NCBI GenBank assembly: GCA_003225335.1
Contig: QHZE01000451.1
Coordinates: forward strand, 2,612-66,611
DNA length: 64,000 nt
From: Acidobacteriota bacterium
GTDB lineage: Bacteria; Acidobacteriota; UBA6911
Direction of reading: 5' to 3'
The first letter of the stretch is position 1. Every line of letters begins with the position of its first letter. Both the position numbers and the translations under genes were made by a program. This document shows positions 4,985 to 45,374 of this stretch, one piece after another. Under the pieces are notes generated by a model, which worked only from the letters and a program-made list of their open reading frames with translations, was not told the origin of the DNA and did not search any database.

Positions 4985-5075
4985 TGTCACGGGCGTCTCG
5001 CCCGTGACTGACTGGGCGGTATGAGGCTCACTCGCTATGAATAGCGAGCAGACCTCATACCGCCGAGGGTAGGGA
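4985..5075. repeat. family F element (CACGGGCGTCTCGCCCGTG hairpin plus TGAGGCTCACTCGCTAT..ATAGCGAG hairpin)
   Basis: Second copy at 55296-55445 in the opposite orientation. Confidence 0.7.
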
Positions 5076-5225
5076 ACCGCCGATGCACGCCGATTAACGC
5101 CGATGGAAACATCCGCGTCCATCGGCGTTCATCGGCGGTTTCAAACTCTCAGACTGCCCTTCTCTCAACCATGGCTCTCGTACGAAACTTGACCAGTTTG
5201 TGAACTTCGTAGCTGGCTAGTCTGG

Positions 5226-5783
5226 CTAGGCCCGAGATTGCTCCACTTCGGCTGTGCAGATACGCAGGGACTTTGCGATGGGCGTCAGATGAGTTTTCAG
5301 AGCAGTTCGCCCACGATTCAGCCGCGACATAACGGTTCCGAGCGGTATGCTCAGCATGGCGGCTATTTCTTTGTAGGAGAACTCCTGGACGTCGGCGAGG
5401 AGCAGTACGGCGCGGAAGTCTTCGGGCACCTTCTTAAGAGCGGCAAGAACATCCTCGTCCGTGATCTGCTCGGGTGTCGGGGGCTCATAGGTCAGGAGGT
5501 CTTCCAGCGCATTCTCGCTCTCTCTGCGCAACCATAATGAGAACCATTTCCGCCGATGATGGTGGATGACGTGAAACAGGATCTTGAACAACCACGCCCT
5601 GCAGTTCGTTCCGGGCGTGAACCGATGGAAAGACTTCCAGGCTTGTAGATACGTCTCCTGCACCAGATCTTCCGCTTCAGTCCGGTTCCCTATGATCTTG
5701 GCTGCGGTCCTGTAAAGAGAATCCAGATGAGGCAACGCCGCGCTTTCAAACTGTTCGAGACTGGCCTTCTCGGTGGTCTCCAT
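5226..5783 (-). CDS. ECF-type sigma-70 family RNA polymerase sigma factor
   Basis: 185 aa. Region 2 reads ..DLVQETYLQAWKSF... Region 4 HTH reads ..FSYKEIAAMLSIPLGTVMSRLNRGR.. Confidence 0.85.
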   Translation of the reverse strand: METTEKASLEQFESAALPHLDSLYRTAAKIIGNRTEAEDLVQETYLQAWKSFHRFTPGTNCRAWLFKILFHVIHHHRRKWFSLWLRRESENALEDLLTYEPPTPEQITDEDVLAALKKVPEDFRAVLLLADVQEFSYKEIAAMLSIPLGTVMSRLNRGRTALKTHLTPIAKSLRICTAEVEQSRA

Positions 5784-5896
5784 GATTTCACGCTAGACGA
5801 TCAGGTTTGCGAGCGCGGAACGTTCCCGGCTGTAGTGATCCTGTCTATGGTTTTCGAACGCCTTTCGGAGTGATGAATGCCGGTACGCTGGGGCGC

Positions 5897-6175
5897 CTAT
5901 GCCATTCGTCCGGTGCCGTCCGTTCTCAGCATTTCAGCAAGGAACGATGAGCAGTTGGTCAGATTCACCTGGCGCTCCAAGAGGTTCCTGAGGAGCCTTA
6001 GCCCGTCACGGTCCGCAAACGAGACTTCACCAATGTCCAGTGTGAGTTTGTGGCCGCCTTGGAAACGCCTTTCACAGTATGTCGCAACCTCCGTAACCCA
6101 CGGACCAATCAAATCACCTTCCAGTTTCACAACGACTCGGTCGCCCGAAAGGCCGCCTTCTGAGATTCTCACCAT
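5897..6175 (-). CDS. STAS-domain protein (anti-sigma-factor antagonist-like)
   Basis: 92 aa. Pattern VVVKLEGDLIGPW...LTLDIGEVSFADRDGLRLL is typical of SpoIIAA/STAS. Lies immediately upstream of the ECF sigma gene on the same strand. The frame stays open upstream of the annotated ATG, so the start is uncertain. Confidence 0.5.
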   Translation of the reverse strand: MVRISEGGLSGDRVVVKLEGDLIGPWVTEVATYCERRFQGGHKLTLDIGEVSFADRDGLRLLRNLLERQVNLTNCSSFLAEMLRTDGTGRMA

Positions 6176-6379
6176 CTGCTGTTTCCCACTCTTTCCACTT
6201 GGTAATGGAACAGATGCAACTGGCCTGCCAATCCGGCGTCATCGGCTCTACTCCTCTCGTAACCCACAAGTCTAGAGAGATTTGATCGAAGCAAGGCAAC
6301 ACGCGACCCGTCGGCGGGCCCTCGAAATTTCGTGGAAAGGAGACTCGTCCATCCACGCGTGAGGCCAAAACTACGATAT

Positions 6380-6426
6380 TTTGTGGGTGAAAAGAAGGGC
6401 GCCGCCTCCAAGACGCGAAGAATCAC
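6380..6426. repeat. family A element, half copy
   Basis: TTGTGGGTGAAAAGAAGGGCGCCGCCTCCAAGACGCGAAGAATC. Confidence 0.6.
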
Positions 6427-6438
6427 TAAGGATTCTAT

Positions 6439-7894
6439 TCACGGCTTTTGACGGGTTACTCGGCGGTGGATGCCGAGTTTCTTCATCCTGCTGCGGAGTG
6501 TGTTGGGGTGGAGGTTGAGAATCTTTGCGGCGCCTCTGGGGCCTTCGATGACCCACGCTGATTTCTCGAGGACTGAAAGAATGTGGTGGCGCTCGACATC
6601 CTCGAGGGTGCCGGAACCTGGTGCGCTTGAGGCGTGGTCCGCCTGCACGGCGACCTCCTGGGCCACGGCATGGGTCCCAGGGGGTTCCGCGGACATGGCC
6701 GAAGGGGAAAGGGACGGGGAAGCGGAAAGTGTGGGAAATAGCACACGTTCGAGCTTGAGAACCGGTCCGGTGGACAATACTGCCGCGCGCTGCAAAACAT
6801 TTTGGAGCTCTCGAATATTGCCGGGCCAGGAATAACTGGCGAGGAGGTCCATAGTGTCCTGAGCAACCTTGTCAATCTTCTTTCCGATCCGCTTCGCAAA
6901 ACGGGTCAGGAAAAACGTCACGAGTTGGGGAATGTCCGACTGGCGTTCCCGAAGCGGCGGGATCGTGAGAGGAAACACGTTAAGGCGGTAGTACAGGTCG
7001 GCACGGAGCTGCCCTGCCGCGACCGCCTGGGCAAGGTCGCGATTGCTGGCAGCGATAATGCGCACATCCACTCGAAGGGTGCGGCTGCTCCCCACGGGCT
7101 CGAATTCCTGTTCTTGCAGGACGCGCAGGAGCTTGACCTGGGTTTCCAGCGGGAGCTCCGAGACTTCGTCCAGAAACAGGGTGCCTCCGTTAGCCAGCTC
7201 GAAACGCCCCGTGCGAGCAGTGATAGCGCCGGTGAAAGCTCCTTTGACGTGACCGAAGAGCTCGCTTTCGACCAGGCCCGCGGATATGGCGCCGCAATTG
7301 ACCTTCACGAGCGGCCGATCTTTCCGGGCGCTGCGGGCATGGATGGCGCGGGCTATAAGCTCTTTGCCGGTTCCTGTTTCGCCGTAGATCAGAACCGTAG
7401 AGTCGGTCGGGGCCACCCTTTCCACCTGACCCAGCAGGTCCAGCAGGGCAGGGCTGCTTCCCACGATCTCTTCGAAGTTGTGCTCGCGCCGGATTTCCTC
7501 CTGCAGGTAGATATTTTCAGCGCGAAGCCGGTTCTTGAGCGTTTCGACCTCTGCGAGCGCTGCGCGAAGCTCCTCTTCGGCCCGGCGCCGGAGGGCGACC
7601 TCCTGCTTCATCTCTGCGTAGAGACGGGCGTTTGTGAGAGAGATGGCGGCTTGAGACGAGAGTATGTGCATGATCCTGATGCGGTCGGCTGTGAAGGCGT
7701 CCGTCGTCAGGTTGTTCTCGAGGTACAGAATCCCCCCGAACTTTCCCTGGTGAACTACCGGCACGCAAAGGATCGATTTGGGCCGCGCCGAGCAGATGTA
7801 GGGGTCCCCCCAAAACCTCTCATCAACCGGGGCATTGCCCAGAACGATGCTCTCTCCGGTTTTGCGAACGTAGTGGACGACGGCCTGAGAAAAA
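6439..7894 (-). CDS. C-terminal part of a giant regulator: GAF (C-terminal half), sigma-54-interaction AAA+ domain and Fis-type HTH. The frame is open upstream of the annotated ATG at 7764 and joins the upstream ORF through a frameshift near 7890-7895.
   Basis: Walker A GETGTGKE, the GAFTGA loop and ESELFGH are all present. The C-terminal HTH reads ..[21 protein letters not shown]. Translating upstream of the ATG gives GAF continuation [29 protein letters not shown].. Confidence 0.8.
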
Positions 7895-10800
7895 AGATCC
7901 GAGGAAGAACCCTCTTTGCGCGCCGGCTTTTTCCAGAGCGATCTTCATGAGTTTGCGCAAGAGATCTTCGAGGACGATTTCGACGGCGATGACGTGGGCA
8001 GCTTTTGAAACGGTAGAAATGTCGAGGGGAGAAGGTTGCGGATCTCTTTCAATCCCGGCAACCGACGGCTCTCCTGGCGATGTCCCGCCGTAGGGTCGGC
8101 CCTGTGTGGCCGCCCGATCTGCCGACGCAGGGGCGCCCCTACGGCCACTTTCGTCTTCGTCTCGATCACACCCTGAACCGGCAGGGAAAGCCGTGAGCTC
8201 CGAGTCGAGCAGGTCCCGTGCCAATAAATTCGGATACTTTTCCTCCAAAGCTTTCACTTTAGCCGCGGCGCCCCACTCCTGGTAAAGACGGCGGGCCCGG
8301 CGAAGGTAGAGCGCAGCGATTTCTTCGTTGCTTTGCTGCAGCCAATATCGGGCATAAAGCTCGTTTGCGATGGCCTCGTTGGGAAGGTTTTGCGTCTCGC
8401 GCGCATACCGAAGCGCTTCCTGGTACGTATCCATGGCCGCGACCTCATGCCCGCAGACACGCTCCAGCTCGGCTCCAAGCAGCAGGGAATAGCAACGGAA
8501 ATTCTCCGGACAATTCTCTGCGAGGAAAGCCAGAGATTTCGCCAGCCGCTGAAGTTCTTGCTCCGAATCCCGGCGTTCCGCATGGCCGGCATGGGAGCAG
8601 CGTGCGGCCAGCGTGACGCCGTAGAGAAAGTCCAGCAGAACCGGCCAGATCGTTCCACCGAGAGAGTGTATTACCTGGCGGGCGTTTCGAGCGTTTTCGT
8701 AGGCCTTCTCGTATTCTTCGAACAGGACACTGAGATGAAGCTTGACCACGTAAAGGAAGGTCATGAAGAAAGGGTTGTTGCTGTAAGCCCGGACATAGGC
8801 ATCCTCGTCAAAGTCCTCGGCGGTAAGTTGGAGCGCGGACGAGGTCAGGCCCTGGAGGGCCCGCGCCCAATTCAGAATGACCTTTTGAGCGTCCACGAAG
8901 CTGTCCATCTTGAGCTTCTTGATCAGTTGCAGGTTCGGCGAATAATCGCGGACAAAGAGGGCCAGGTCCCGGCTGGTGAGGAACGCGGGCCAGGTCTCGG
9001 TGAAGGCCCCGTAGTTTGCGTAAGTGAAATCGCCGGTCTCCAGGCCGCTGCGGCAGGCTTCGCGCGCATGCGGGATGCAAGTCCGCATCGGCCGCCGCCA
9101 GAGGTTGACATGGGCGTTGAATTGCTGATGGACTTTGGCTCGCCGCTTGCGATCGTTGAGGCGTTCATTGACGCTCAACGCAAGCCTCCCGAACCGGTAC
9201 GCAGACTCGTAGTCTCCTCTGACGGGACCCACTGTGATCGCGTGAGTCACATAACCGTACGCGGACTCCTCGATGTTTCCGTGCGTCAGTGAAAGGCGGA
9301 CCATCGTTGCGGAGATAAGGCGGGTGAGAGCCTGATCTCCCAAGATATAGGCAGGCGCCCATAGGGCGGTGAGGATTCCCATCACCAACCGGATCTCCGG
9401 ATCCGCCATCACAGGCAGATCGACCAGGGAATCAATGGTCCGGTTGCCGAGGATGCTCCGGATGCCGTTCAGCTCGGCCTCGAGCGCGGATTCCTTGCCG
9501 GCCTCGGAATCGGGAAACGTAACACCGAAGAGCTCAAGGCCCTCCTTGCCGGCCTGAACGGCGAGAGCGTAGCGAGACATGTTCTCGTACTGGACGACTT
9601 TCAGATTGCAGACCTGAGCCTTGTCCAATCGCGTTCGAGCTCGTTGAAGGATATGGTCGAAGCAGCGCTGCGCCTCGTTGAAATGGCCGCACAGGTACGC
9701 GCATTCGGCAGCCTCAATCTGGAGGTCGAACATGAGCTGATAATCGGAATTCCACGAGTCTTCCGTGAGGAGATCCCTTCCTGCTTTGAGATAGGTCAGG
9801 GCGGCCTCGTAGGCGGTCGAGAACTTCGCCTTCCGGCCGGCGTTCAGGTTCAGCCGCGCCAATTGAAGGCGCTCGGCATCGTCCGTAATCAAACCCGCGC
9901 CGCGGTTCAAGTGGTGGACGATGTCAAAAAGCTTCTCGTCCAGGACGGCGGGATCGGACCGCTCCAGGAGCAGACGGCCGACAGTACCGTGGATGAGCTG
10001 TTTTTCTCCGTCCGGGATCAAGGCGTAGGCCGCTTGCTGAACACGGTCATGCAGAAATGAGTATGCGGGGATGGGATGGGCGACGTCCTCGGACTGCTCT
10101 GGAGACGCATCGTACGACGGTGCAGCCGGCAAGAGCAGCTGCTCATCAAAAACTTGCTGGAGATCGTTTGCGGCCGCGTCGCGTGATTGCTGGCTGACGA
10201 TGGCAAGCGTGGACAGGTCGAAAGGGTTTCCAATGCAAGAGGCAAGCGTCAGGGCGCGCTGAGTCTTGGGCGAGAGGCGCTGGATCTTCCGCGTCATGAG
10301 GTCGATGACGTTGTCCGTCATTGCCGCTCCTACAATGGCATCCATCTGAAAAATCCAGAAGCCGCGGTCGTAGTCGAACTCGAGCAGCCCTTCCTGACGC
10401 AACGCCTTCAAGAACTGCTGCACGAAGAAAGGGTTTCCATCAGTTTTCTGCAGAACCAGACGGGCGAGAGGCTCGGCCTCCTCGAGTTTTCGATGGAGGG
10501 TGTCGCCGATCAGGAGAGTAAGATCTCGAAGTCCCAGCGCATTCAGGAAGAGGCGCTGTATCGGAGCGCCGGCCGATTCCAGCGCGCTTAGCGTTCTCGT
10601 CAACGGATGACTGGCATCGACTTCATTGTCACGGTAGGCGCCCATCAAGAAAAGGTGCCCGATGTCGGAGCTGGTGAGGAGCGGTCTCAGCAGACCCAGT
10701 GTGGCCGCGTCGGCCCATTGCAGGTCGTCCAGAAAAATGACGAGCGGATGGTCCCGGCGCGCCAGTGCCGTGAGCAGGTTTTGGAATACGAGCTGAAATC

Positions 10801-12100
10801 TGTTCTGCGCCTCGATCGGTCCCAACGGGGGCGGCGGTGTCTGCTCGCCCAGGATCAGCGCAATCTCGGGGACCACCTCGGCCACCACGCCGCCGCCGGT
10901 GCTGCCGAGAGCTTCTGAGAGCCGGGCGCGCCAGAGGCTTAGCCGTTGCTCGCTTTCGGTGAGTAACTGCTGAACGAGTGCCCGCAACGCTTGAATCAAG
11001 GCGCCCAAAGGGATGTTGCGCACGACCTGGTCGAACTTCCCGGAAATGAAGTAGCCTTTTTGACGAACGATAGGCTTGTAAAGCTCCTGAATGAGAGACG
11101 TTTTTCCTATCCCGCTGTAACCGGCCACAAGCATCATGGCGGTGGATCCCTCGCAAACGCCTTCGAAGGCCTGAAGCAATTGGGATAACTCCGTCTCTCG
11201 TCCGTACAGTTTCTGGGGAATCAGGAAGCGGTCGGAAACGTCGCGCCGCCCGAGAGTAAACGCGGCGATGGAAGCGCGAGAATTCCACTCCTGCTCGCAG
11301 TGCTGGAGGTCTTCGTTGAGTCCGAGCGCGCTCTGGTAGCGCTCCTCGGCAGTTTTGGCGAGCAGTTTCATGACAATCTGAGAAAGGGGTTCGGGGATCG
11401 TCGCGTCAAGATGGCTGGGGGAGGGAGGCGTCTTGGCGATGTGACCGTGAATGATCTCCAGGGTGTCGCCCGACGTGAAGGGAGGCGCTCCGGTCAGGAA
11501 CTCGTACAGGATGACGCCGAGGGAGTAGAAATCAGTGCGATAGTCAATCGCGCGGTTCATGCGGCCGGTCTGTTCCGGCGAAATATACGGCAGCATGCCC
11601 CTCATGAGATGGACAGGCATCAGTGCCTGGAAATCGGCGGAGGACCTGGCCGCCAGACCCAGATCGGCGAGAGTCACCTCCCCCGTGGCAGGGAATACGA
11701 GAATGCCCTTGGGGTTGAGGCCTCTGTGTGCGACCTTGCGCCGATGCAATTCGGCCAGGATAGTGCAAAGCTGAACGGCAATTCTGAAAAAGAAGGCGAG
11801 ACTCGGTCGCCGGCTGCCGCGCAAGGAGTGGAGCGGCGCCCCGCCGCGATCTTCGAGCACAAGACAGCAGCGCCCATTCATCCGAAACATCTCGTACGGA
11901 CGCAGGACACCCGCAACGGAGAGGTCCTTCAGGATCTGGAACTCCCTCTCGAGCAACTCGATGTCGGTGTGGTTTGGCGGTTGCCGGTGCGGGACCTTCA
12001 GGAGGACCGGCCTTTTGTCCTTCAGGCTCCGGCCGCGCTGGAGAGCGTGCCAGTCATTACGCGTGAGCTCCTCGATGAGCTCGTAACCAGGAATCGTCAA
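7823..12100 (-). CDS. N-terminal part of the same regulator: Ser/Thr protein kinase domain, STAND/AAA NTPase (P-loop GYSGIGKTS), TPR-like helical region and the start of GAF. Probable TTG start at 12100; the ORF track start is 12166.
   Basis: Kinase motifs: [10 protein letters not shown] (catalytic loop), DLGLA (DFG-like) and PYISPEQ (APE-like). AAGGAGG sits 6 nt upstream of TTG at 12100. The frame terminates at 7823-7825, in a different frame from the downstream sigma-54 ORF. Confidence 0.8.
7890..7895 (-). other. A6/T6 homopolymer: most probable site of the single-base frameshift splitting the kinase-sigma54 regulator gene
   Basis: The frameshift must lie between the frame-A stop (about 7938) and the frame-B stop (7823). 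This is the only homopolymer of 6 or more in that interval. A 1-nt change here fuses ..[10 protein letters not shown] to [12 protein letters not shown].. Confidence 0.55.
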
Positions 12101-12236
12101 GAAAATCCTCCTTGGACGTCGCCTGCCGGATAGAAACCCTAAATGTGTGAGCGGAGTATGCCACAAGAGGAGTCCCTTGCAAAGAAGAGACGGTTTGACC
12201 GGGAGGAACCCTGGAGACTACATTGACAGAGAAAAA

Positions 12237-12340
12237 CTTGCCACGAATTTCACGAATTAAACGAATTTAATCCGCAAACCCGAAATCGGGGGTCCGGCGC
12301 TGGCCTGTTTTTTTCGTGTAATTCGTTCGTGTTTTCCTTA
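12237..12340. repeat. family D element (GCCACGAATTTCACGAATTA ... TTCGTGTAATTCGTTCGTG)
   Basis: Inverted arms. Other copies at 14440-14475, 22952-22985, 24741-24785, 45296-45374 and 58297-58365. Confidence 0.75.
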
Positions 12341-12568
12341 CAAGATTTTGCGTGTCTTCTTTGGAGTGCGCAAGCTTGCTTGCGCTTTAAGGGCGATGGA
12401 ACATTTCCATCCGCACCAAAGCGGCAGCAAGCTGCCGCACTCCAAAGAGCGCAGTGGCGTGTGATTTTACTTTTGGCTGCGGCTATGCTGTCCTATGTAA
12501 TTCGTGGCCGTTTTTTTCAGCTCTTCCAACGGTTTTGAACGCGTGGGAAGGCGAATTGCCGCAGGTTT

Positions 12569-13222
12569 TCATCGTGGAAGCGCCGGTAAGGAAGTCGCTC
12601 GGGGTTCTGAATCATTCTCTTCGACCCGGTGTGCCGTCACGACAAAACGCTTTGGAGCATCCCCGATGAAGTAGAACGGGTAACAGGTGACAAGCGTGAT
12701 TTCCGGCTTTGGAGAAGGCGCCAGAACCCTGATGTCTGTGGGCTCGACAATCTGAATCTTGTCCACGCGATACTGGTAGGTTCCCTTGAGCGTGGTCACC
12801 CGGATAAGGTCGTTTCGGGATATTCCTTTCAGTGGCCGGAACATACCGTCCCGATGCCCGGCAATCGCAAAATTCCCCTGCTGCCAGGGGAGGGCCGTTC
12901 CTTCTATGTGTCCTGCCGCCCGGTTGAGCGTCCATTCATTGGTTCCTCGCAGGACCATTACGGAGAGATCAATTGCAGGGATTTCCAGCCGGCCTATAAC
13001 TGAAGGGATTTCTAGAATGTCCTTCGCGGGACTGTTCTCGCCGTTGAGAGTTCCCCGGAAAGTCCACCTGTCATAGATCTGGAACACCTTCGAATGGGCA
13101 AGCATGACACCATAAGCGGCTAGAGCCGCCAGGCCTATCACCATGCAAAGACGTTCCGCTGTCCGCAGAATTGCGTGGAAAGTTTCCTTCGGCCAGGTCT
13201 TAAGATGAATTCGGATCTTCAT
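12569..13222 (-). CDS. sortase-family transpeptidase
   Basis: N-terminal TM helix. Catalytic His in AIAGHRDG, Cys in ITLVTCYPF, Arg in KRFVVTAHR. Confidence 0.8.
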   Translation of the reverse strand: MKIRIHLKTWPKETFHAILRTAERLCMVIGLAALAAYGVMLAHSKVFQIYDRWTFRGTLNGENSPAKDILEIPSVIGRLEIPAIDLSVMVLRGTNEWTLNRAAGHIEGTALPWQQGNFAIAGHRDGMFRPLKGISRNDLIRVTTLKGTYQYRVDKIQIVEPTDIRVLAPSPKPEITLVTCYPFYFIGDAPKRFVVTAHRVEENDSEPRATSLPALPR

Positions 13223-13393
13223 AGTCGTTGCGCATCAGCCGTACGACGTTGCTCCCTATGTGGCCAAAAAGTCTCTGGGCTTGGCGGCCACCAAGTAGGT
13301 CCAGGTCGTCTCCAGCACAGCTCGGTGTGGTCACAGCTTGCGACGAAGGAGCAGGGCCAGGGCCGGCTTTCCGCTCCCTCGCGCATGAAGCTT

Positions 13394-14155
13394 TTAGGAG
13401 GACCAATTCCTCAGTGTGCGGAAACTGTAAGCCGCTCCCAACGCCAGGAGACCGACGAGCCCCAAGAGTGGATAGGGGCTGCCTGTTTTAGGCAGTGATG
13501 CAGACTCTTGAGTCGTCGCAGACTCTTGAACCGTTGCCGGCGGTTGTGCGGTGTCCAGCGTGCTCTGAACCGGATCCGTGCTCGGCTGGATAGCAGCGCT
13601 TTCAGGCTCAGGGGACTCGACGGGATCCTTTTCTGGGGCGGAGGGCTCGTTGACCGGCTGAACGGAAGCCGTTTCGGCCGCGGTGCTGGGGACTTCCTTC
13701 ATCTTCGTATCGGAAATGCTGGGCGCCTCCTCCTTGACCTGGGCGGCAATCTGGGCGGTTTCGCTCTTTGAGTAGACGAACTCTTGGCCGAAAGTGTCCC
13801 CCGGATAGAACCACGCCTTTAATGCCCGCGGGGAGCCCTTGGGTGTTTCCCAGAGCGCGAATTGATTGTCCCCCGCGGGTTTGAGTCGACGGTTGGGTAA
13901 AGCCAGGATCGTTGCATGAATCTGCGTTTCGTCTTCGTTCAAGACCTGCACGATGTTCCGGTCGGATACAGAATCAACCAGTTTGAAAACATACTTCCCT
14001 GGGGGCAAGGTAGCCCCGGGAACGCGCAGGGGTTGATTCGTCGTCACAACGGTCTTCTTGTTCCTCGTGTCTGCTGAAGCATAGTGTGCGTTAACGATGA
14101 TACCTGCAATGAGTATGATGCAGGCTACGATCGTGAGAACTTTCTGTCGGTTCAT
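13394..14155 (-). CDS. LPXTG-anchored secreted protein; candidate substrate of the adjacent sortase
   Basis: Start ATG 14155 behind RBS GGAGG; the ORF track start at 14257 is an artifact. Signal/TM segment MNRQKVLTIVACIILIAGIIVNA. A Pro/Ser/Thr/Glu-rich linker. C-terminal sorting signal SLPKTGSPYPLLGLVGLLALGAAYSFRTLRN. Confidence 0.75.
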   Translation of the reverse strand: MNRQKVLTIVACIILIAGIIVNAHYASADTRNKKTVVTTNQPLRVPGATLPPGKYVFKLVDSVSDRNIVQVLNEDETQIHATILALPNRRLKPAGDNQFALWETPKGSPRALKAWFYPGDTFGQEFVYSKSETAQIAAQVKEEAPSISDTKMKEVPSTAAETASVQPVNEPSAPEKDPVESPEPESAAIQPSTDPVQSTLDTAQPPATVQESATTQESASLPKTGSPYPLLGLVGLLALGAAYSFRTLRNWSS

Positions 14156-14252
14156 CTGATACCTCCGTTTTCCAATGGGAGCCGATGCGTTGTGGGAGGA
14201 TTGTCTACAGCGGCCTTGAATTACAAATGTTTTGACAATCTGTAGTATCCGT

Positions 14253-14268
14253 TGCAACAGCCGTGCCA
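14253..14268 (-). promoter_or_regulatory. sigma-54 (RpoN) -24/-12 promoter, TGGCACG-N4-TTGCA, reading toward the LPXTG-protein/sortase operon
   Basis: The minus-strand sequence TGGCACGGCTGTTGCA matches the consensus TGGCACG-N4-TTGCW perfectly. The GG-to-GC spacing is canonical. The predicted TSS lies about 85-90 nt upstream of ATG 14155. Confidence 0.7.
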
Positions 14269-14382
14269 GTCTGGGGTTCGTGCCGGTATCTTACACAGGC
14301 TCAAGAGAAGGACACACGAAGCCGGACGAGCCGGGGTACCGCGAGAGTGGGAATCCAGGGAAAATTTCCGCACTGACAAAGG

Positions 14383-14434
14383 TCATGAAGAGTGGGTTGT
14401 TGCTGTAAGCCCTGACATAGGGATCCTCGTCCTA
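14383..14434 (-). pseudogene. about 50 bp relic fragment homologous to an internal segment of the regulator gene (8761-8812)
   Basis: GGTCATGAAGAgtGGGTTGTTGCTGTAAGCCCtGACATAGGgATCCTCGTC matches 8761-8812 at about 90% identity. The translation [18 protein letters not shown] compares with [18 protein letters not shown]. Confidence 0.5.
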
Positions 14435-14439
14435 GCCTA

Positions 14440-14475
14440 TTTTTTTGTAATTCGTGAAATTCGTGGCCTTTTTTT
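14440..14475. repeat. family D element
   Basis: TTGTAATTCGTGAAATTCGTGGCC. Confidence 0.65.
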
Positions 14476-14512
14476 CAGTTGGTGCAAATCCGTGGCGGCA
14501 GGGAATGAATTC

Positions 14513-17461
14513 TCAAAAGCTGTAGCGGAGGGCGACTTCTATTTCCCGGGCTCTCCGGGCGCCGAAGATCTTGCCGAAGAGGGAAGTCCCGAAGACGGCA
14601 TACGGTTGTTCGAAGTTGACCTGATTGAAGGCATTAAAGAGCTCGAGTCGAAACTCAAACAAATGCCCATTCGAAAGCCGGGCCTGGCGGATGACACTCA
14701 CATCCCAGTTATGATACCTGGGCCCGGCGAGTATGTTTCTTCCCGAATTCCCGAAGGCGTAGGCCTGGGGCGCAGCGAAATCTGAGACCGCAAACCATTG
14801 GTTCACGCTGCGCTTGGACGGATCCAACGTGCCGGGACCGAGCCGGTCCGGCCGGTCGCTGGCGACGCCGTCGTTTCCGGGATCGCCTGGGAGCAGCACA
14901 TTGTAGGGAGCGCCCGTCTGGACGCGCGTAATGCCCGAGAGGCGCCAACCTCCTGCGATTTTCTGCACCCACCCTGGCGAGTCGCGACTGAACTTGCCGT
15001 CTTTCCCAAACGGCAGGTCGAAGATGTAACTGAGGAACAGTTCTCTTGCCGGGATGGAATCTGCCGGACCGCGCTCGGCGCGGAGATTCCGCGGGTTCGA
15101 GGGAAAGCTGCGGTAAAGATCATTCAATGTCCGGTTCCAGGCGAACTCCGACTTCAATGCCAGACCTTCCACCAGTCGCCGCTCGGCAGACAGACGCAAG
15201 GCGTGGGCGGTGTACGAACCGCTGGCCGTCAGGATTGCGAAACGCCCGAAGTTCGGATTGGGGCGGCGAGGCTGAATGTCTCCGGGACCCGGGAGCGGAA
15301 CATTAGCCGCGAGGGTCTGCGCAATGTGAGTCCCCTTGCTCCCCTGGTAAGAAGCCGAAAAATTCCAATGCTGGAATGACTCGTTCTGCGCGATGAGATG
15401 CCAGCTCTGTATGTAAGGAGTCCGAAGGTGGGGATCAATCCCGCGCACACCCAGTTCGGCGGCCACATTCGATTCAAAGGGAGTGGCCAAATTGAGCCCC
15501 GCTCTGTCTACGGAAGACTGCGCGGTCTCGACAAAGTAGAAAGGGAAATTGCGTGCCAGATTATTCACGAAGAATCCCGCACCCACGGGAGAATAAAACG
15601 TCGAGTACGAGCTTCGGAGCACCAGGCGGTTGCGGCCGAAGGGGCTATAGGCGAAACCCAGGCTCGGTCCCCAATCGTTGCGGTCAGGGAAGACCAGTCC
15701 GCCCTTCCCTGCGCCATTCAGTCCCAACTGGTGGGCCCGCTCGCTTCCCGCGATAACGATTTCCCCGTCCAGGGGCGGTTCAAACAGAAGGGGAAAGAAG
15801 CCCGAAACGTTGTTGCCCACAGACCTGTAAGGGGAGGCGTAGTTGTAGCTGAGCCCCGTGTTGAGGCTGAGGTTCGGACTGATCTTCCACTCGTCGCTGA
15901 CAAACAGATACCATGACTTCCGCCTCAGGTCGGCGCGGTCCGACCCCACTCCCCTCGAAGCCGTATCCGGAAAACCGAAAAGAAAGTCGGCAAACGCATC
16001 GCCGCTGTAGTAGCCGTCGAATGCGAATCTCCCCTTGCGCAGGCCGTCCGAACGGTTGTTGTTGGTCTGATGCGCCGCGAACCCTCCGCCGATGCGGATC
16101 GAGTGGTCTTCTGGAGCATAGGTCAGCGCGGCATCCCAGGACATCCTGTTGTTCACGCCGGTAATAGGAAAGACCGCATCTCCGAAGGAGGCGTAACCGG
16201 AAAACCGGAAATCCGGGTAGCCTTCGTCCTGCGGGTCTGCCACCGACAAACCGGATATTCCCAGGGAGCCGAGGAGGTCCGCCTTTCCTGCATTTACAGA
16301 ACGAAGGACATCTTCATTGCGGCTGAAATCGAGTCGCAACGAGCCTAGAAGCCGGTTGGTCAGCTTGCGCGTAAACGAGACCGAGGCCGCTTGATCCCGT
16401 CCTTTCCGGATGGATCCAAAGGCCGGCAGGAAGTTAGCCGAGGAGTCGTCGGCATCGGAAAGCTCGTAGCGGACAAAAATCTTGGACGCGTCGCTGAGTT
16501 GGGAATCGAACCTCAAGGAGAAGGAGTCTCGATTGCGAACGACAGGTTTGTTGTTCACGTAGTTCCGATCCGGGTCCGGCTGGTTAGGATCCGGTATGAG
16601 GGGGAGAAGACGCTTTGCCACCGGATGGATTCTGGATTCCGGAATCCGGTTGGCTTCCAGAGGCAGACCGCTGACCGGGTCCCGCAGTTGTGTTGCCAGA
16701 GCGCTAAAGTCGCCGCGCTTCATGGCAGGGTCCGGCACATGCGACACAAGCGTGGATCCCTGGATGATTCGGAGGCCCTCGTAGGTGCCCAGCAGGTTCA
16801 ACTTGCTGCTTAGCAGCGCGCCGAAGGTGACGCCGAACTGGTTTCTCTTGTACTCGGGCAGAGGCTCCCCGACCGGGTCGAAGAAGTTGCGCGCATCGAA
16901 GTTGTCGTTGCGGAGGAACTCGTAGAGAGAGCCGTGGAAGCGGCCGATTCTCTTGGCCGAAAAGGGATTGACGATCTCCGCAATGGAGCGAGGTCCGGGA
17001 ACGTTCGTCCGGGCAGGCTCGGTTTCCTGAACCCTGTAATCTCGAATTGTCGCCAGCGATGGATCTGCCTCGATCGGCGGATCGGGGGCGCCGGTTTCTT
17101 CCCGGGGCGCGGTAAGCTCCATCGCCCGGACGCCCTTCTCGGTCACCTGGATCCGCAAGTGACGCCGCTCTTTGCTGTCGAGCGACAGGAAGACGAGGAA
17201 CGTGGTCCTGTTCTCTTGCTCGGCGTAAACGACATAGTGACCCTTGGGAAGCTCTGCCGTGAAGTTTCCCTTTTGGTTTGTGGCTACAGGGATCCTGTTG
17301 TTGGTTTGCCGGTCCACGATGAAAACTATCAGCGACGCGACCGGCTTGCCTTGGGCGTCCTGAGCGTTGCCGCTCAAGGTGGCTGCTTCGCAAACGAGCG
17401 GGACCCCGGGAAACAAGGAGAATAGAAGCAGGCCGCGCAATGCGGTCGTGCAGCCATTCAT
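14513..17461 (-). CDS. TonB-dependent outer-membrane receptor with N-terminal carboxypeptidase-regulatory-like domain
   Basis: 982 aa with signal peptide and a beta-strand-rich sequence. The C-terminal outer-membrane signature ends in ..ALRYSF. Confidence 0.8.
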   Translation of the reverse strand: MNGCTTALRGLLLFSLFPGVPLVCEAATLSGNAQDAQGKPVASLIVFIVDRQTNNRIPVATNQKGNFTAELPKGHYVVYAEQENRTTFLVFLSLDSKERRHLRIQVTEKGVRAMELTAPREETGAPDPPIEADPSLATIRDYRVQETEPARTNVPGPRSIAEIVNPFSAKRIGRFHGSLYEFLRNDNFDARNFFDPVGEPLPEYKRNQFGVTFGALLSSKLNLLGTYEGLRIIQGSTLVSHVPDPAMKRGDFSALATQLRDPVSGLPLEANRIPESRIHPVAKRLLPLIPDPNQPDPDRNYVNNKPVVRNRDSFSLRFDSQLSDASKIFVRYELSDADDSSANFLPAFGSIRKGRDQAASVSFTRKLTNRLLGSLRLDFSRNEDVLRSVNAGKADLLGSLGISGLSVADPQDEGYPDFRFSGYASFGDAVFPITGVNNRMSWDAALTYAPEDHSIRIGGGFAAHQTNNNRSDGLRKGRFAFDGYYSGDAFADFLFGFPDTASRGVGSDRADLRRKSWYLFVSDEWKISPNLSLNTGLSYNYASPYRSVGNNVSGFFPLLFEPPLDGEIVIAGSERAHQLGLNGAGKGGLVFPDRNDWGPSLGFAYSPFGRNRLVLRSSYSTFYSPVGAGFFVNNLARNFPFYFVETAQSSVDRAGLNLATPFESNVAAELGVRGIDPHLRTPYIQSWHLIAQNESFQHWNFSASYQGSKGTHIAQTLAANVPLPGPGDIQPRRPNPNFGRFAILTASGSYTAHALRLSAERRLVEGLALKSEFAWNRTLNDLYRSFPSNPRNLRAERGPADSIPARELFLSYIFDLPFGKDGKFSRDSPGWVQKIAGGWRLSGITRVQTGAPYNVLLPGDPGNDGVASDRPDRLGPGTLDPSKRSVNQWFAVSDFAAPQAYAFGNSGRNILAGPRYHNWDVSVIRQARLSNGHLFEFRLELFNAFNQVNFEQPYAVFGTSLFGKIFGARRAREIEVALRYSF

Positions 17462-18195
17462 AATAGCGGCTCGCCCTTGACCACCATCCTGGTGACGAAG
17501 AAGTTGGCTCTCAGATCTTGTTCAAACGAAGGGACGTCGAGCTCGAAGCTGACGACCTGATCTTCCGGGATAACTACAGGAACGCCCTGGATCCTGCGTG
17601 GAAAAACAAACTTCGCGCCTACGACATCATCCTGCGGGGCGAAATATGCGGAGAGCTTGACCTGGTGGAATCGAGGCGTGGAGATGAAGGCCCTGGCTTT
17701 CATCGTCTCCGTAGTCTGGCCCTGGAGGAACTGCGTTATTTGAAGCTCGAGACTGGGGTCATTGGATCGAAAGCTCACGGCGACGACGATCCAGTTGCTT
17801 ACATCCATCTTGAGACCGGGGTTCAGGGCGGCATCGAATTTTCGTTTGGCGGCTCTGTCCATCTGGTCGTAGCCCGCCTTAATCTGCTTGACTCGCGCGT
17901 AGGCCTGCCGGACCGGTCGCGCCGAGAGGAAGCGCACAAAGAACGTGCTGTAGATTTCCTTTTCTCCGAGAATACCGCTGCCGATCCCCCCTATTACACG
18001 GGTGAAAGTCTCTTGCCTGGCCCACGGAGATTGATTCAGAACTTCGACGGCTTCTTCCAGCGTCCACGTCGTGTAAGGCTTTCCCAAAATGCCGGCGTCT
18101 GCCGCGAAGGCCGGGAGCGCCAGAAGCAAAATCCAGTAAAAGTATCTCCGTCGATCTCTCATGGAAGCACGTTTCTGATCCGCAGACTTGATCAT
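17458..18195 (-). CDS. secreted hypothetical protein, translationally coupled (ATGA overlap) to the downstream TonB-dependent receptor
   Basis: Signal peptide ..YFYWILLLALPAFAADAG. Stop and start overlap as ATGA at 17458-17461. Confidence 0.5.
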   Translation of the reverse strand: MIKSADQKRASMRDRRRYFYWILLLALPAFAADAGILGKPYTTWTLEEAVEVLNQSPWARQETFTRVIGGIGSGILGEKEIYSTFFVRFLSARPVRQAYARVKQIKAGYDQMDRAAKRKFDAALNPGLKMDVSNWIVVAVSFRSNDPSLELQITQFLQGQTTETMKARAFISTPRFHQVKLSAYFAPQDDVVGAKFVFPRRIQGVPVVIPEDQVVSFELDVPSFEQDLRANFFVTRMVVKGEPLL

Positions 18196-18246
18196 AGATT
18201 CTGTCGCTTGGGCTGATCAAGTGCAGAGTCTGTGGCCCACACCCAA

Positions 18247-18356
18247 ATTCTTTGCTCTCCGGCGCCAAATTCTTTGCGACTCTTTGCGTCTTCGCGTCTC
18301 TGTGGTGAAGCAGGTTACGCCGCATTCACCGCCAAGACGCAAAGACGCGAAGAATC
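18247..18356. repeat. family A palindromic element, full copy
   Basis: TTCTTTGCGACTCTTTGCGTCTTCGCGTCTCTGTGGTGAAG ... TTCACCGCCAAGACGCAAAGACGCGAAGAATC. Confidence 0.8.
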
Positions 18357-18414
18357 ATCAGGAAGATTTTTGGGTTGCGGCTATCCCGCGCCAGGTTTAA
18401 AGGTATGGATTGAC

Positions 18415-20358
18415 ATGAAAGACGAGATCATCTGGCGTCCCCATGGAGACTACGTCACGAAGTCGAATCTGCGCCGTTTCATGGACCGGTGCGGGGCCGG
18501 GGACTACCAGGAGCTTCTGGCGCGCTCCGTCCGCGACAGCGAATGGTTCTGGGACGCCTCCATGAAAGATCTGGGTGTGGAGTGGTACGAGCCCTACACG
18601 CGGGTCCTGGACAGCTCGCGCGGGTTTCCCTGGTGCCGCTGGTTTGAGTCCGGAAAAATCAACCTGGTGCACAACTGCCTCGACAGGCACAGCAGTTCCC
18701 GCCGGGACCAGCTTGCTCTTATCTGGGAAGGCGACGGCGGCGAAACCCGCGAGATGACCTACGGGGAGCTTGACGCCGCGGTTTGCCGAATGGCGAACGC
18801 TATGCGGGACCGGGGTGTCGGAACAGGCGACAGCGTGGGAATTTACATGCCCATGCTGCCGGAGACTGTCGTTGCGCTTCTTGCAGTTTGGAAGATCGGC
18901 AGCATCGCCGTGCCGATCTTTTCAGGTTTCGGCCCGGACGCTGTTGCGGTCCGGCTGCGAGATGCCGGAGCGAAATTGCTCTTTACGGCAGACGCCTCGG
19001 TCCGCAGGGGAAAGCCGCTGCAGCTCAAAGAGCTGGCGGATCAGGCGCTGCGATCGGCGCCGTCGGTGAAAACCTGTGTCGTGTTCCGGCGAACGGGTGC
19101 GAGCGTGAGCTGGCAAGCCGGCAGGGACGCCTGGTGGGATGAGCTTGTGGAAAGCTATCCCTCGCGAGCACCGACCGAGCGCCTCAATTCAGAGGACCTG
19201 TGTCTGAATATTTACACATCCGGAACAACCGGCCGTCCGAAAGGAACGCTGCACACACATGGAGGAGTAATCGCTCAAGTGCCGCGAGAGCTGGCTTACT
19301 TCATGGATGTCCAGGAGCGAGATCGCTTTTTCTGGCTGACCGATCTCGGTTGGATGATGGGTCCCTGGGAAATCATCGGAGTAACTTTCCTGGGCGCAAC
19401 CGTCTTCTTATTTGAAGGAGCGCCCAATTGGCCCAACCCCGATCGCCTCTGGCAAATCGTGGAGCGGCACCGGCTGACGCATCTTGGGATCTCACCCACA
19501 GCCATCCGGCTCCTCTTGCGGGCGGGCGAGCAGTGGGTAGACCGCCACGATCTCTCCAGTCTGCGCATCCTCGGCTCGACCGGAGAGCCTTGGGACCCCG
19601 AGTCCTATCTCTGGTACTTTCGCAAGGCGGGCGGCGAGCGTTGTCCTGTAATCAATATCTCCGGAGGCTCCGAGCTGATGGGTTGCCTGGTCGCCTGTAC
19701 TCCGCTCGCGCCTTTAAAGCCGTGCTCGTTTCAAGGCCCCGGTCTGGGAATGGACGTGGATGTCTGCGATGAGGACGGGAAGCCGGTGCGCGGCGCCGTG
19801 GGTTATCTCGTGTGCAAGAAGCCGGCGCCGTCGATGACGCGCGGGTTCTTGAACGATCCTCAGAGGTATCTGGAAACCTACTTTTCACGCTGGCCGGGAA
19901 CCTGGTACCACGGCGACTGGGCGCGCGTCGACGAAGACGGCTTCTGGTACATCCTGGGGCGAGCGGACGACACCATCAAGGTCGCCGGAAAACGCACGGG
20001 CCCCGCCGAGATCGAAGCCGCCCTGATCTCGCATCCTGCGGTGTCGGAAGCCGCAGCCATCGGTGTTCCCGACGAGGTCAGGGGAGAGACAGTAGTCTGC
20101 TTCGTCGTCCTGAAGCCGGGATTCGAAACGGCGGATGCGCTGACCGGGCAGCTCTCGGACAAAGTCGTGGAGTCTCTGGGCAAGACGCTTCGTCCCCGCA
20201 AAGTGTACATTGTGAGCGCGCTCCCGAAGACGCGCTCCGCGAAGATCGTGCGCGGAGCAATCAAGCGCCGTTATCTGGGACAGGACCCGGGCGATCTCTC
20301 GTCGGTGGAAAACCCGGAGGCCCTTGACGCCATCCCTTCGCTGTTTCCCACCACGTAG
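18415..20358 (+). CDS. AMP-forming acyl-CoA synthetase (acetyl-CoA synthetase family)
   Basis: The ORF track start at 18232 runs through a family-A repeat. ATG 18415 (MKDEIIWRPHGDY..) gives a 647 aa protein. AMP-binding motifs YTSGTTGRPKG and ..GYGQTE-like. ACAS_N-like N-terminus. Confidence 0.8.
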   Translation: MKDEIIWRPHGDYVTKSNLRRFMDRCGAGDYQELLARSVRDSEWFWDASMKDLGVEWYEPYTRVLDSSRGFPWCRWFESGKINLVHNCLDRHSSSRRDQLALIWEGDGGETREMTYGELDAAVCRMANAMRDRGVGTGDSVGIYMPMLPETVVALLAVWKIGSIAVPIFSGFGPDAVAVRLRDAGAKLLFTADASVRRGKPLQLKELADQALRSAPSVKTCVVFRRTGASVSWQAGRDAWWDELVESYPSRAPTERLNSEDLCLNIYTSGTTGRPKGTLHTHGGVIAQVPRELAYFMDVQERDRFFWLTDLGWMMGPWEIIGVTFLGATVFLFEGAPNWPNPDRLWQIVERHRLTHLGISPTAIRLLLRAGEQWVDRHDLSSLRILGSTGEPWDPESYLWYFRKAGGERCPVINISGGSELMGCLVACTPLAPLKPCSFQGPGLGMDVDVCDEDGKPVRGAVGYLVCKKPAPSMTRGFLNDPQRYLETYFSRWPGTWYHGDWARVDEDGFWYILGRADDTIKVAGKRTGPAEIEAALISHPAVSEAAAIGVPDEVRGETVVCFVVLKPGFETADALTGQLSDKVVESLGKTLRPRKVYIVSALPKTRSAKIVRGAIKRRYLGQDPGDLSSVENPEALDAIPSLFPTT

Positions 20359-20375
20359 ATCCCGAGTGCACATCT

Positions 20376-20473
20376 TCTTAGCGATTCTTCGCGTCTTTGC
20401 GTCTTAGCGGTAACAATGGCGTAACCGCTTTCACCACAAAGACGCGAAGACGCAAAGAACTGCAAAGAATTCT
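20376..20473. repeat. family A palindromic element, full copy
   Basis: TTCTTCGCGTCTTTGCGTCTTAGCGGTAAC..GTAACCGCTTTCACCACAAAGACGCGAAGACGCAAAGAACTGCAAAGAA. Confidence 0.8.
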
Positions 20474-20563
20474 CGCCTCAGGAGTGTTATCCGCAGCCAT
20501 GTCCGAGGCGGCCATGCGACGAGGGCGCCGGAGAATTGCCTGGCTTCAATCGTCAATCGTCAA

Positions 20564-21424
20564 TCAAAAGAGGACCATTGCCAGGCGCTTTCGATATTCC
20601 TCCGCAAGACCGCTGCGCTCGCCGGCAAGAGCGAACACGGTGAGCATCGCTTTTCTGGCCGCCTCCTCCCTGAAGTTCCTGTTGCGCGTCACTACAAACA
20701 GAAACTCTTCCAGAGCTCCGCGATAGTCGCCACCGGCTGCAAGGCAGCAGCCGTGAGCATACCGCGCCTCCAGATTCTCGGGTTCTGCCACCGCGCGGGT
20801 CGCGCAGGCCTCCAATCCTCCATTCTGGCCGCAAACGGTGTGGAACTCGAGGGCCTGTTTCAGAGGCTCCGCCTGTTCCTGCTGCGGAGAATCGGACGGG
20901 ATTCGATCCCACAGGGATGCGGCCTCTGCGTCGCCGGCGGCAGCCAAAATCTTTCCGAGCTCTAACAACGCGCCGCCGTGAGAGGGGTCCGCTCGAAGAG
21001 CTTCTTCGAATGCGCGACGTGCTTCCTGCGCCTGGCCGAGGTCCAGGCAAGCTAATCCTTCTGCATACTTCCGGTCGGCGTCGCTGGGACAGTGACGGCG
21101 CAAGAAGTGCCGCGCTTCACCCTCGGAAATCGCGCCCATGAACTCGTCGACCACCGCGCCCCCCTTGAAAACCTTCACGTTTGGAATGCTGCGGATACCG
21201 AAACCTTGCGCGATCTCCGGATTCTCTTCCGTGTTGACCTTGGCCAGGAGAAAATCACCCTTGAATTCCTCGGCCAGTCTTTCCAGCACCGGCCCGAGAA
21301 TCCGGCAGGGACCGCACCACGGCGCCCAGAAATCTACAACCACCGGGCGGCGAAAAGACTCATCAATTACCGACTGATCAAAGTCCTGAATTCCTACATC
21401 CTTTACGTGAACCGCTGTTGCCAC
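20564..21424 (-). CDS. thioredoxin-domain plus TPR-like protein (YbbN/CnoX-like co-chaperone)
   Basis: WCGPC active site followed by a helical TPR-like C-terminal half. The likely start is GTG 21424 behind GGGAGGA; the ORF track start is 21472. Confidence 0.75.
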   Translation of the reverse strand: MATAVHVKDVGIQDFDQSVIDESFRRPVVVDFWAPWCGPCRILGPVLERLAEEFKGDFLLAKVNTEENPEIAQGFGIRSIPNVKVFKGGAVVDEFMGAISEGEARHFLRRHCPSDADRKYAEGLACLDLGQAQEARRAFEEALRADPSHGGALLELGKILAAAGDAEAASLWDRIPSDSPQQEQAEPLKQALEFHTVCGQNGGLEACATRAVAEPENLEARYAHGCCLAAGGDYRGALEEFLFVVTRNRNFREEAARKAMLTVFALAGERSGLAEEYRKRLAMVLF

Positions 21425-21462
21425 GAGCTGTCCTCCCGCACTCAAATTAGAATATTTCCGCC

Positions 21463-21545
21463 TTCCACACAAGATCAGACCTCAGACTTCAGACCTCAGA
21501 CTCCAACTCGCACGTAGTCTGATCCCTGAGGTCTGAGGTCTGATG
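21463..21545. repeat. CAGACCTCAGAC oligo-repeat palindrome
   Basis: CAGACCTCAGACTTCAGACCTCAGACTCC...GATCCCTGAGGTCTGAGGTCTGATG. A related copy lies at 61187-61290. Confidence 0.7.
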
Positions 21546-21548
21546 CCC

Positions 21549-22951: not shown

Positions 22952-23016
22952 CGCCACGAATCACACGAATTAACGCGGAGATTAATCCGCAGTCCGCAAT
23001 TGGAAATCCGCAATTG
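22952..23016. repeat. composite family D plus family E element
   Basis: CGCCACGAATCACACGAATTAACGCGGAGATTAATCCGCAGTCCGCAATTGGAAATCCGCAATTG. Confidence 0.7.
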
Positions 23017-45295: not shown

Positions 45296-45374
45296 CTTGC
45301 CACGAATTACACGAAAGGGCTGCGTCACCGTGAGTGAGCGAAAGCATTTCGTGTAATTCGTGAAATTCGTGGCA
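45296..45374. repeat. family D palindromic element, full copy
   Basis: TTGCCACGAATTACACGAAAGGGCTGCGTCACCGTGAGTGAGCGAAAGCATTTCGTGTAATTCGTGAAATTCGTGGCAA. Confidence 0.8.

Follow-up and report, generated by a model that had tools for sequence, protein, structure and literature searches.

A predicted sigma-54-controlled LPXTG/sortase cassette beside a giant enhancer-binding protein in an Acidobacteriota contig: one circuit or two?

Which activator serves a sigma-54 promoter when the only enhancer-binding protein in view is encoded next door? This question is raised by a 64-kb stretch of QHZE01000451.1, a contig of a soil-dwelling member of the Acidobacteriota (hereafter the window, scanned over its full length; coordinates are window positions), in which a small secreted protein with an LPXTG sorting signal and a sortase are encoded behind a perfect -24/-12 element, next to the gene of a giant, kinase-fused sigma-54 activator (Table 1). 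An earlier, sequence-only reading of this DNA had joined these elements into one circuit, with the activator controlling the LPXTG/sortase pair. Comparison with other genomes leads us to a different arrangement, which we hold to be fairly probable: two independent sigma-54 modules would lie side by side, an LPXTG/sortase cassette (module 1, 14369-12569) and the giant activator with a STAS-domain protein and an extracytoplasmic function (ECF) sigma factor (module 2, 12166-5226). The sequence features reported earlier were all found again, except that the reading frame of the activator is broken here.

The argument against a single circuit comes from synteny. No kinase or STAND homologue was a neighbour of the cassette in the 79 cassette loci that we fetched, and the cassette was found in 0 of 86 other kinase-STAND loci, so that the proposed control of the pair by the kinase-fused activator lost its comparative support. 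Of the 87 kinase-STAND loci compared, only L080, a near-identical public contig (99.6% identity over window 5226-22229, with the same gene order), has an LPXTG or sortase gene. In the 80 metagenome loci that represent the kinase-STAND family more widely, neither gene stood upstream of the activator. The synteny check proposed with the circuit hence found activator and cassette together only in the window and in L080.

The LPXTG/sortase cassette and its promoter

The LPXTG protein is built of a signal peptide, a conserved beta-rich domain of ~100 amino acids (aa), a Pro/Glu/Ser-rich linker, the signal LPKTGS, a transmembrane helix and a basic tail. Its C-terminus reads LPKTGSPYPLLGLVGLLALGAAYSFRTLRNWSS, the tail being RTLRNWSS. 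The sorting signal scored above the cut-off of TIGR01167 (17.1 against 15.9) and just under that of Pfam Gram_pos_anchor (19.3 against 20). With signal peptide, LPKTGS, hydrophobic stretch and basic tail all in place, the protein is indeed, as first described, a predicted secreted LPKTG protein.

The description of a sortase on the same strand, with its His, TLVTC Cys and Arg triad, was equally borne out. Pfam Sortase (PF04203) matched at 9e-34 (116.3 bits against a cut-off of 26.6) and TIGR01076 at 90.9 bits (cut-off 39.35), and the His (AGHRD), Cys (TLVTC) and Arg residues aligned with those of solved sortases, including 5k9a. The enzyme is membrane-anchored and class C/D-like, yet it falls under every NCBIfam class cut-off. 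Among solved structures, the nearest relative was the pilus sortase of Corynebacterium diphtheriae (5k9a, 2.8e-18); further class C/D enzymes came next. Assignment to a subclass gave a divided answer: the sequence was closest to classes D and C, but reached none of the class cut-offs, scoring 128.5 against 165 for class D (NF033746) and 135.4 against 140 for SrtD (NF058671), a threshold that its homologue in locus L004 barely passes (143.5). For class GN ('marine', TIGR03784) the score was 86.9 against 158.25, and the substrate gave no match to the corresponding target family TIGR03788.

The promoter element TGGCACGGCTGTTGCA is the sole exact match to TGGCACG-N4-TTGCW in the 64 kb, as a window-wide search for a second exact site confirmed; allowing at most one mismatch gave 4 sites against 0.5 expected. 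Its 3' end lies 97 nucleotides (nt) before the ATG at 14155, which is preceded at 8 nt by a GGAGG ribosome-binding site, and the element is unchanged in L080. Among 81 homologous LPXTG upstream regions, 43 had a -24/-12 element with at least 9/12 matches, compared with 5% of shuffles; the typical homologue element is TTGGCA-N7-CTGC, mostly 80-130 nt before the start codon. One could suppose that transcription of the cassette makes no use of the perfect -24/-12 element and starts instead at an unrecognised promoter of the sigma-70 type, or reads through from the gene of the outer-membrane protein upstream; a consensus scan indeed cannot model acidobacterial sigma-70 promoters. We consider this very improbable, given a match at 12 of 12 positions at a typical distance from the start codon, the retention of equivalent elements in most homologous loci (at ~40-55% protein identity and with differing upstream genes) and the activators that often adjoin the cassette.

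The LPXTG family is large: a protein search returned 1931 matches and a genome scan confirmed 581 loci, and both these loci and the family members with a named source belong almost all to Bryobacterales, Terriglobia or other Acidobacteriota. Enough downstream sequence for a sortase count was available in 71 of the 79 fetched loci, and a sortase followed on the same strand in 62 of them. A gene of ~1 kb stood in between in 57 of these 62, and LPXTG and sortase genes were directly adjacent, as in the window, in the other 5. The intervening gene usually encodes a TIGR03436 VWA protein; in L004, for instance, this acidobacterial VWA gene overlaps the sortase start. The VWA protein has no sorting signal. 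Because the window holds a sole perfect site, homologues keep -24/-12 elements and a sortase follows in 62/71 loci, the cassette is real and conserved: the LPXTG gene and the sortase form a conserved unit behind a predicted, sigma-54-type promoter. We found neither a sigma-54-controlled sortase cassette nor any acidobacterial sortase described in the literature that we searched.

A single substrate per sortase, which the sequence-only reading had thought unusual, is not general in this family, as some genomes have three paralogues. One metagenome-assembled genome carries three dispersed LPXTG paralogues (L012, L044 and L059), just one of them with a sortase, and L077 (10001-20672) has three LPXTG genes in tandem with two sortases. 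From these two cases, the ratio of sortase to substrate is not always one to one.

Further motifs lie above the promoter. The palindrome GGAAATTTTCC might be a candidate activator site or an architectural site, an assignment that we make weakly. A GGAAAT-N-TTCCC variant occurs at about -80 to -103 in the window and its closest relatives (-98 in L002, -80 in L054), and a MAFFT alignment of these three upstream regions gave nothing informative beyond this short motif. In other loci the recurrent motif is GGTAAAACTTTCC, present with at least 10/13 matches in 29/62 loci compared with 1.2% of shuffles; 25 of the 29 have it at a near-fixed distance of 63-71 nt upstream of the -24 element. The usual upstream neighbour elsewhere is a 505-aa Thy1/ThyX-like protein (PF02511, 1e-27; L004 8270-9787 and 39 other loci) that scores below the thyX equivalog cut-off and is absent from the window, and in some loci the GGTAA of GGTAAAACTTTCC doubles as the final codon and stop of this ThyX-like gene.

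Response-regulator-type activators lie directly beside the cassette in ~30 loci, in three arrangements. A 464-aa activator whose N-terminus resembles a degenerate receiver is encoded convergently, directly after the sortase, in ~27 loci; in others a canonical receiver-domain activator lies just upstream, either on the same strand (L001, L015, L055) or divergently (L079, L070). About half of the cassette loci have no activator within 10 kb. A search of the window for remnants of VWA, ThyX-like or response-regulator activator genes found none. What the window has is therefore a minimal cassette, set in other genomic surroundings.

The giant activator and the STAS/ECF-sigma pair

The domain set listed for the giant activator was recovered in full by profile search: Pkinase, AAA_16 (a STAND-type NTPase with GYSGIGKTS), helical repeats, GAF, Sigma54_activat and HTH_8. 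The match to PF00158 (1e-71), the presence of GAFTGA and the match to HTH_8 (5e-8) identify it as an enhancer-binding protein, and it is, as had been stated, the only one in the window. What did not stand is the description of its gene as coding for one protein of ~1890 aa, as the two open reading frames (ORFs) are not in one frame here. In L080 the protein is intact, at 1918 aa (P0121, the representative of 37 member sequences). Relative to L080 the window lacks 94 nt (L080 14200-14293) at ~7902; REENGALRIEAEGAVDRDEVRVLEATRLEER is lost, the frame is shifted and ~31 GAF residues are removed. The first ORF runs out of frame at its end, and the second enters the GAF profile only at position 55. 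The 94 nt may truly have been lost in this strain, with inactivation of the gene, or their absence may be an error of assembly.

The architecture is common, not rare. The activator search gave 8000 scored matches and, among the best 120 listed, nearly all were proteins of 1800-2100 aa with the full domain set; members with a named source came from Acidobacteriota, Nitrospirota and Methylomirabilis, and many are annotated as 'sigma 54-interacting transcriptional regulator'. When metagenomes were scanned with the kinase-STAND part, most matches were distant paralogues whose outputs differ; these served as a negative control, and the scan also gave two loci of interest for the comparison below (L087 and L088). 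Kinase-AAA_16(STAND)-repeat-GAF proteins with other outputs share the N-terminal 1300-1400 residues at 35-46% identity: the same search held members ending in HisKA/HATPase (P0189, P0193, P0198), whereas the giant activator ends in a sigma-54 AAA+ domain with a Fis-type helix-turn-helix (HTH) as its output. A non-exhaustive literature search turned up no kinase-STAND-GAF member with either a histidine-kinase or a sigma-54 output.

On the side opposite to the cassette, the activator has company that is conserved. We compared ten lineages with downstream sequence, Acidobacteriota, Nitrospirota and Methylomirabilis among them, and found a STAS gene, an ECF sigma gene or both immediately downstream of the giant activator in 8/10, covering three phyla. 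STAS followed by ECF sigma is the order in the window and L080 and in L082-84; L085 adds a zf-HC2 anti-sigma, L169 has STAS and two ECF sigmas, and in L167 an inserted HTH gene precedes the pair. A STAS-like ORF stands before the ECF sigma gene in L087, as does an uncalled STAS-like ORF in L168, and L088 has a STAS gene. Neither was found in L086 and L170.

The region between the activator stop and the STAS gene also bears the signals expected of a target. In the window it contains two palindromes of the CCACGA-N4-TCGTGG type, and a search with CCACGAWATWTCGTGG, allowing at most 3 mismatches, found these two and no other site in the whole window. A second sigma-54-type promoter, TGGCAGGCCAGTTGCA, lies between them and the STAS gene. 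Palindromes and a -24/-12 element occupy the same region in the window, L082, L085, L167 and L169, with two palindromes each in the window, L082 and L085, three in L167 and one perfect copy in L169. L087 and L088 keep the -24/-12 element, and their palindromes are other or weaker, as expected in these more distant members if the HTH has diverged; none was found in L168. Since the palindrome occurs only there, the synteny is conserved and a -24/-12 element is present, the evidence for a target of the giant activator is best for the STAS/ECF-sigma pair, and the palindromes at 6320-6386 are its putative binding sites. We picture that the giant activator would bind both palindromes, just past its own stop codon, and then turn on the TGGCAGGCCAGTTGCA promoter of the STAS and ECF sigma genes. 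Such a module looks like an undescribed sigma-54 to ECF-sigma cascade.

How does the circuit of the earlier reading fare against this background? It would have the adjacent kinase-STAND-GAF activator, in its intact form, drive the LPXTG/sortase pair as well, making one sensory-output unit in this lineage. Part of the evidence does speak for it, and weighs against our two modules. No activator of the LPXTG promoter can be named from the window, and the giant one is the only candidate within 64 kb; it lies directly downstream of the sortase on the same strand, and L080 keeps the arrangement. In other genomes the cassette often adjoins a presumed activator, and because the type and orientation of these neighbours vary, a partner swap to the giant activator is conceivable. 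A repeat at 14448-14467, 180-200 nt (~190 nt) upstream of the LPXTG promoter, bears the half-site CCACGAA/TTCGTGG. The arrangement is kept only in one contig, too similar to the window to date it, and the regulatory assignments on both sides all rest on synteny and motifs.

Nevertheless, we regard the single circuit as improbable. To the mutual absence of cassette and activator from each other's loci must be added that the region before the LPXTG promoter lacks the conserved palindrome, even when as many as 3 mismatches are tolerated, and that the activator family has a well-conserved alternative target on its opposite side. The half-site repeat differs from the full palindrome at six positions and belongs to an intergenic element that is scattered over the window in 7 copies, the others lying >4 kb from any -24/-12 match of at least 10/12. 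The closest LPXTG relatives (L002 and L054) share the motif upstream of the promoter and have no such activator within 10 kb. Finally, a gap of ~400 nt with a -61.5 kcal/mol hairpin separates the sortase from the activator gene. We thus retain the reading of two adjacent modules; if it is correct, gene adjacency alone would have given the wrong target here.

A possible role for the sorted protein, and known systems

Under the two-module reading, module 1 would be a minimal copy of the cassette that is widespread in Acidobacteriota (Bryobacterales/Terriglobia). An enhancer-binding protein encoded elsewhere in the genome, probably of the response-regulator type, would activate TGGCACGGCTGTTGCA upon some envelope or environmental cue. 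The LPXTG protein would be exported by Sec and kept in the inner membrane by its C-terminal helix until the sortase cuts between Thr and Gly of LPKTG and transfers the protein to a periplasmic amine acceptor, for which a peptidoglycan precursor is the likeliest candidate. A small domain would then stand in the periplasm on a long, flexible stalk. We take this as the simplest scheme, given the established chemistry of sortases. What the data show directly are the sequence features, how they are conserved, and the synteny; for both modules, the binding, the activation and what the sortase does are inferred from them.

The folded domain gives few clues to what is being displayed. It had been noted as unrecognisable, and it matched no Pfam family on profile search; its sole family signal is a weak, recurrent match to DUF2911. 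The prediction is beta-rich (residues 34-103, pLDDT, the predicted local distance difference test, 77-91), and comparison with the PDB gave no significant structural or sequence relative. The family motif WFYPGD..G.EF.Y.K, nearly invariant, corresponds to window 13766-13813 (residues 115-130). In the alignment, Y128 and K130 are invariant and P129 nearly so within the EFAYPK of the family, at the end of the folded domain; the window protein reads YSK where the family has YPK. The C-terminus of the family consists of a variable Pro-rich linker, LP[KR]T[AGS]SPYPL, a helix and a basic tail.

This conserved lysine invites a more specific idea on what module 1 does, compatible with either regulatory model: the LPXTG protein could be pilin-like, with the sortase joining the Thr of LPKTG to the Lys of the Y-P-K motif in the next copy to form a covalent fibre. 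The position of Y128, P129 and K130 would suit such a linkage, EFAYPK presumably resembling the Gram-positive pilin motif WxxxVxVYPK. A sortase whose nearest solved relative polymerises pili, the dedicated pairing of sortase and substrate, and the VWA protein encoded in the cassette of most genomes point in the same direction, VWA domains being typical of pilus tip adhesins. We find the idea doubtful all the same. No Cna-type or other pilin domain was detected in the LPXTG protein, nor any structural match above noise; reading through the sortase revealed no class C lid motif (DPW/DPF); in the window protein the motif is YSK instead of YPK; and the VWA protein lacks a sorting signal. Furthermore, a fibre would need to cross the outer membrane, and the cassette has no secretin or usher.

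Sortases are textbook Gram-positive enzymes, and dedicated Gram-negative sortase cassettes are reportedly the subject of Pallen 2001. Cassettes of a dedicated sortase with a single substrate have already been described in Gram-negative bacteria (PMC3237569). There, class GN pairs a TIGR03784 sortase with a single VWA-containing LPXTG target (TIGR03788), and the acidobacterial cassette resembles it in that sortase and substrate lie side by side in a diderm, substrates are few per genome, and most loci have a VWA protein in the cassette. There are also differences: the sortase here scores 86.9, below 158, and stands nearer to classes C and D; its substrate is another kind of small protein, outside any Pfam family; and the VWA domain sits on a separate protein without a sorting signal. 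Sigma-54 promoters and adjacent activators are not mentioned for class GN in the passages of that source that we consulted.

Sigma-54 control of sorted envelope proteins has its own precedent. PEP-CTERM genes have a conserved upstream motif followed by a -24/-12 sigma-54 element, on average ~70 nt from motif to start codon, and a sigma-54-dependent response regulator, PrsR (Haft et al. 2006, PMC1569441). The pattern of upstream motif and sigma-54 element and the distance from promoter to start are similar in the exosortase system with PrsK/PrsR/PrsT and in the cassette. The resemblance is functional only: the enzyme here is a true sortase and not an exosortase, the signal is LPXTG and not PEP-CTERM, scores on the PrsR profile TIGR02915 were 296-332 against a cut-off of 502.6, with the activators adjacent to the cassette at 332, and the cassette has no exopolysaccharide genes. 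Gram-positive class C/D sortases (C. diphtheriae SrtA, 5k9a; the class D enzyme of B. anthracis, 2ln7) are the best sequence matches and align at His-Cys-Arg and TLxTC, but the acidobacterial enzyme scores below the NCBIfam cut-offs, shows no lid motif, comes from a diderm host and has a substrate without pilin or spore-protein domains.

For module 2, the closest parallel is the HrpR/HrpS to sigma-54 to HrpL pathway of Pseudomonas syringae, in which sigma-54 activators are encoded beside an ECF sigma gene and turn it on from a -24/-12 promoter (PMC5263251). We infer the same logic for the giant activator and the STAS/ECF pair, implying no homology beyond shared domains; in contrast to HrpR/S, the giant activator has sensor modules of the kinase, STAND, repeat and GAF kinds, the STAS protein would be co-transcribed, and there is no type III secretion context.

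Both diderm sortase cassettes and sigma-54 control of sorted envelope proteins are known ideas (PMC3237569, PMC1569441). In its boldest form, our proposal would be that a periplasmic, sigma-54-inducible sortase attaches a dedicated small protein to peptidoglycan or to itself (through the Lys of Y-P-K), and that the giant activators form a cross-phylum class of STAS/ECF-switching regulators, a combination that we put forward as unlikely to hold in full. If true, it would extend to diderm cells, through a cassette present in hundreds of soil Acidobacteriota genomes, a type of covalent tether or fibre for which Gram-positive cell walls have provided the only known examples. To our knowledge, the role of sortases in diderm bacteria is essentially untested, and the cassette, with its clear and apparently inducible promoter, compact substrate and small sortase, lends itself well to the question of which molecule a sortase in the periplasm attaches, and to which partner. 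For the very large, uncharacterised family of the activators, a testable regulon is predicted (palindrome site, sigma-54 promoter, STAS/ECF output), conserved across Acidobacteriota and Methylomirabilis, with a synteny to ECF sigma genes that reaches Nitrospirota.

Other features of the locus

Table 1. Coordinates of genes, candidate regulatory sites and repeats in the window.
Feature	Position	Strand	Description or basis
Outer-membrane beta-barrel gene	17461-14513	minus	982 aa; OMP_b-brl_4 + CarboxypepD_reg (Pfam)
TAATTCGTGAAATTCGTGGC copies	12240-12259, 14448-14467, 22953-22972, 24742-24761, 45354-45373, 58306-58325, 58344-58363		dispersed intergenic repeat
53-nt direct repeat	14379-14431	minus	92% identical to positions 8757-8809 in the giant activator gene (19 codons)
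Palindrome GGAAATTTTCC	14359-14369	minus	~101 nt upstream of the -24 element
Sigma-54-type (-24/-12) promoter TGGCACGGCTGTTGCA	14253-14268	minus	12/12 consensus match
LPXTG protein ORF	14155-13394	minus	253 aa; ORF and profile search
Sortase ORF	13222-12569	minus	Pfam Sortase
Long inverted repeat, 44-nt arms	12358-12448	unstranded	hairpin -61.5 kcal/mol, z = -6.0
Giant activator, N-part ORF	12166-7823	minus	1447 aa; kinase, AAA_16 STAND NTPase, helical repeats, GAF start
Giant activator, C-part ORF	7893-6439	minus	different frame; GAF C-half, sigma-54 AAA+ with GAFTGA, Fis-type HTH
Two CCACGA-N4-TCGTGG-type palindromes	6320-6335, 6371-6386	unstranded	reverse-complement coordinates 57666, 57615
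Second sigma-54-type promoter TGGCAGGCCAGTTGCA	6215-6230	minus	40 nt upstream of the STAS gene
STAS-domain protein	6175-5897	minus	92 aa; Pfam; first gene 3' of the giant activator
ECF-type sigma-70 family sigma factor	5783-5226	minus	185 aa; Pfam and conserved synteny

The upstream edge of the cassette carries a trace of the activator gene. Just upstream of the regulatory region, within the 357-nt intergenic region between the outer-membrane barrel gene and the LPXTG ORF, sits the 53-nt fragment of the activator gene listed in Table 1, and because of it we suppose a past rearrangement at this edge, of which the fragment is probably the scar. The second kind of repeat, TAATTCGTGAAATTCGTGGC, was found 7 times in the window where 0 copies were expected. 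Runs of A/T often border it, and it holds direct repeats of TTCGTG, the half-site of the palindrome predicted for the activator. We considered two roles for it and rejected both. The 29-nt inverted repeats at 12231-12259 and 14448-14476 are not taken as transposon ends, TAATTCGTGAAATTCGTGGC being dispersed in 7 copies, and TAATTCGTGAAATTCGTGGC is not taken as a site of the giant activator, since it offers a half-site only, with 6 differences from the 16-mer, and the other copies are not beside -24/-12 elements.

The hairpin at 12358-12448, between the sortase and activator genes, is probably a boundary between transcription units. A second long inverted repeat, unlike it in sequence, lies at 5065-5150. 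An Rfam scan of positions 5000-15000 gave no match, and simple terminator and sigma-70 scans gave no signal above background.

Two neighbours named in the sequence-only reading turned out differently. The supposed TonB receptor is the 982-aa outer-membrane barrel of Table 1, and a di-haem cytochrome c peroxidase is not an immediate neighbour, since among ORFs of 150 aa or more only one (46889-48124), ~32 kb off, has two CxxCH motifs.

Beyond the cassette, the window and L080 differ by an intergenic indel (window 20610-20839, ~230 nt; L080 1391-1490, ~100 nt), near which a 46-nt element (L080 1626-1671) has a 93% match at window 43717-43762. A further sigma-54-like site, TGGCATGCTGTTTGCT (11/12, minus strand, 53189-53204), lies ~190 nt upstream of a 417-aa ORF without an NCBIfam family, and this ORF is followed by an asparagine synthase resembling the XrtA/PEP-CTERM amidotransferase, with 470 bits against a cut-off of 817.

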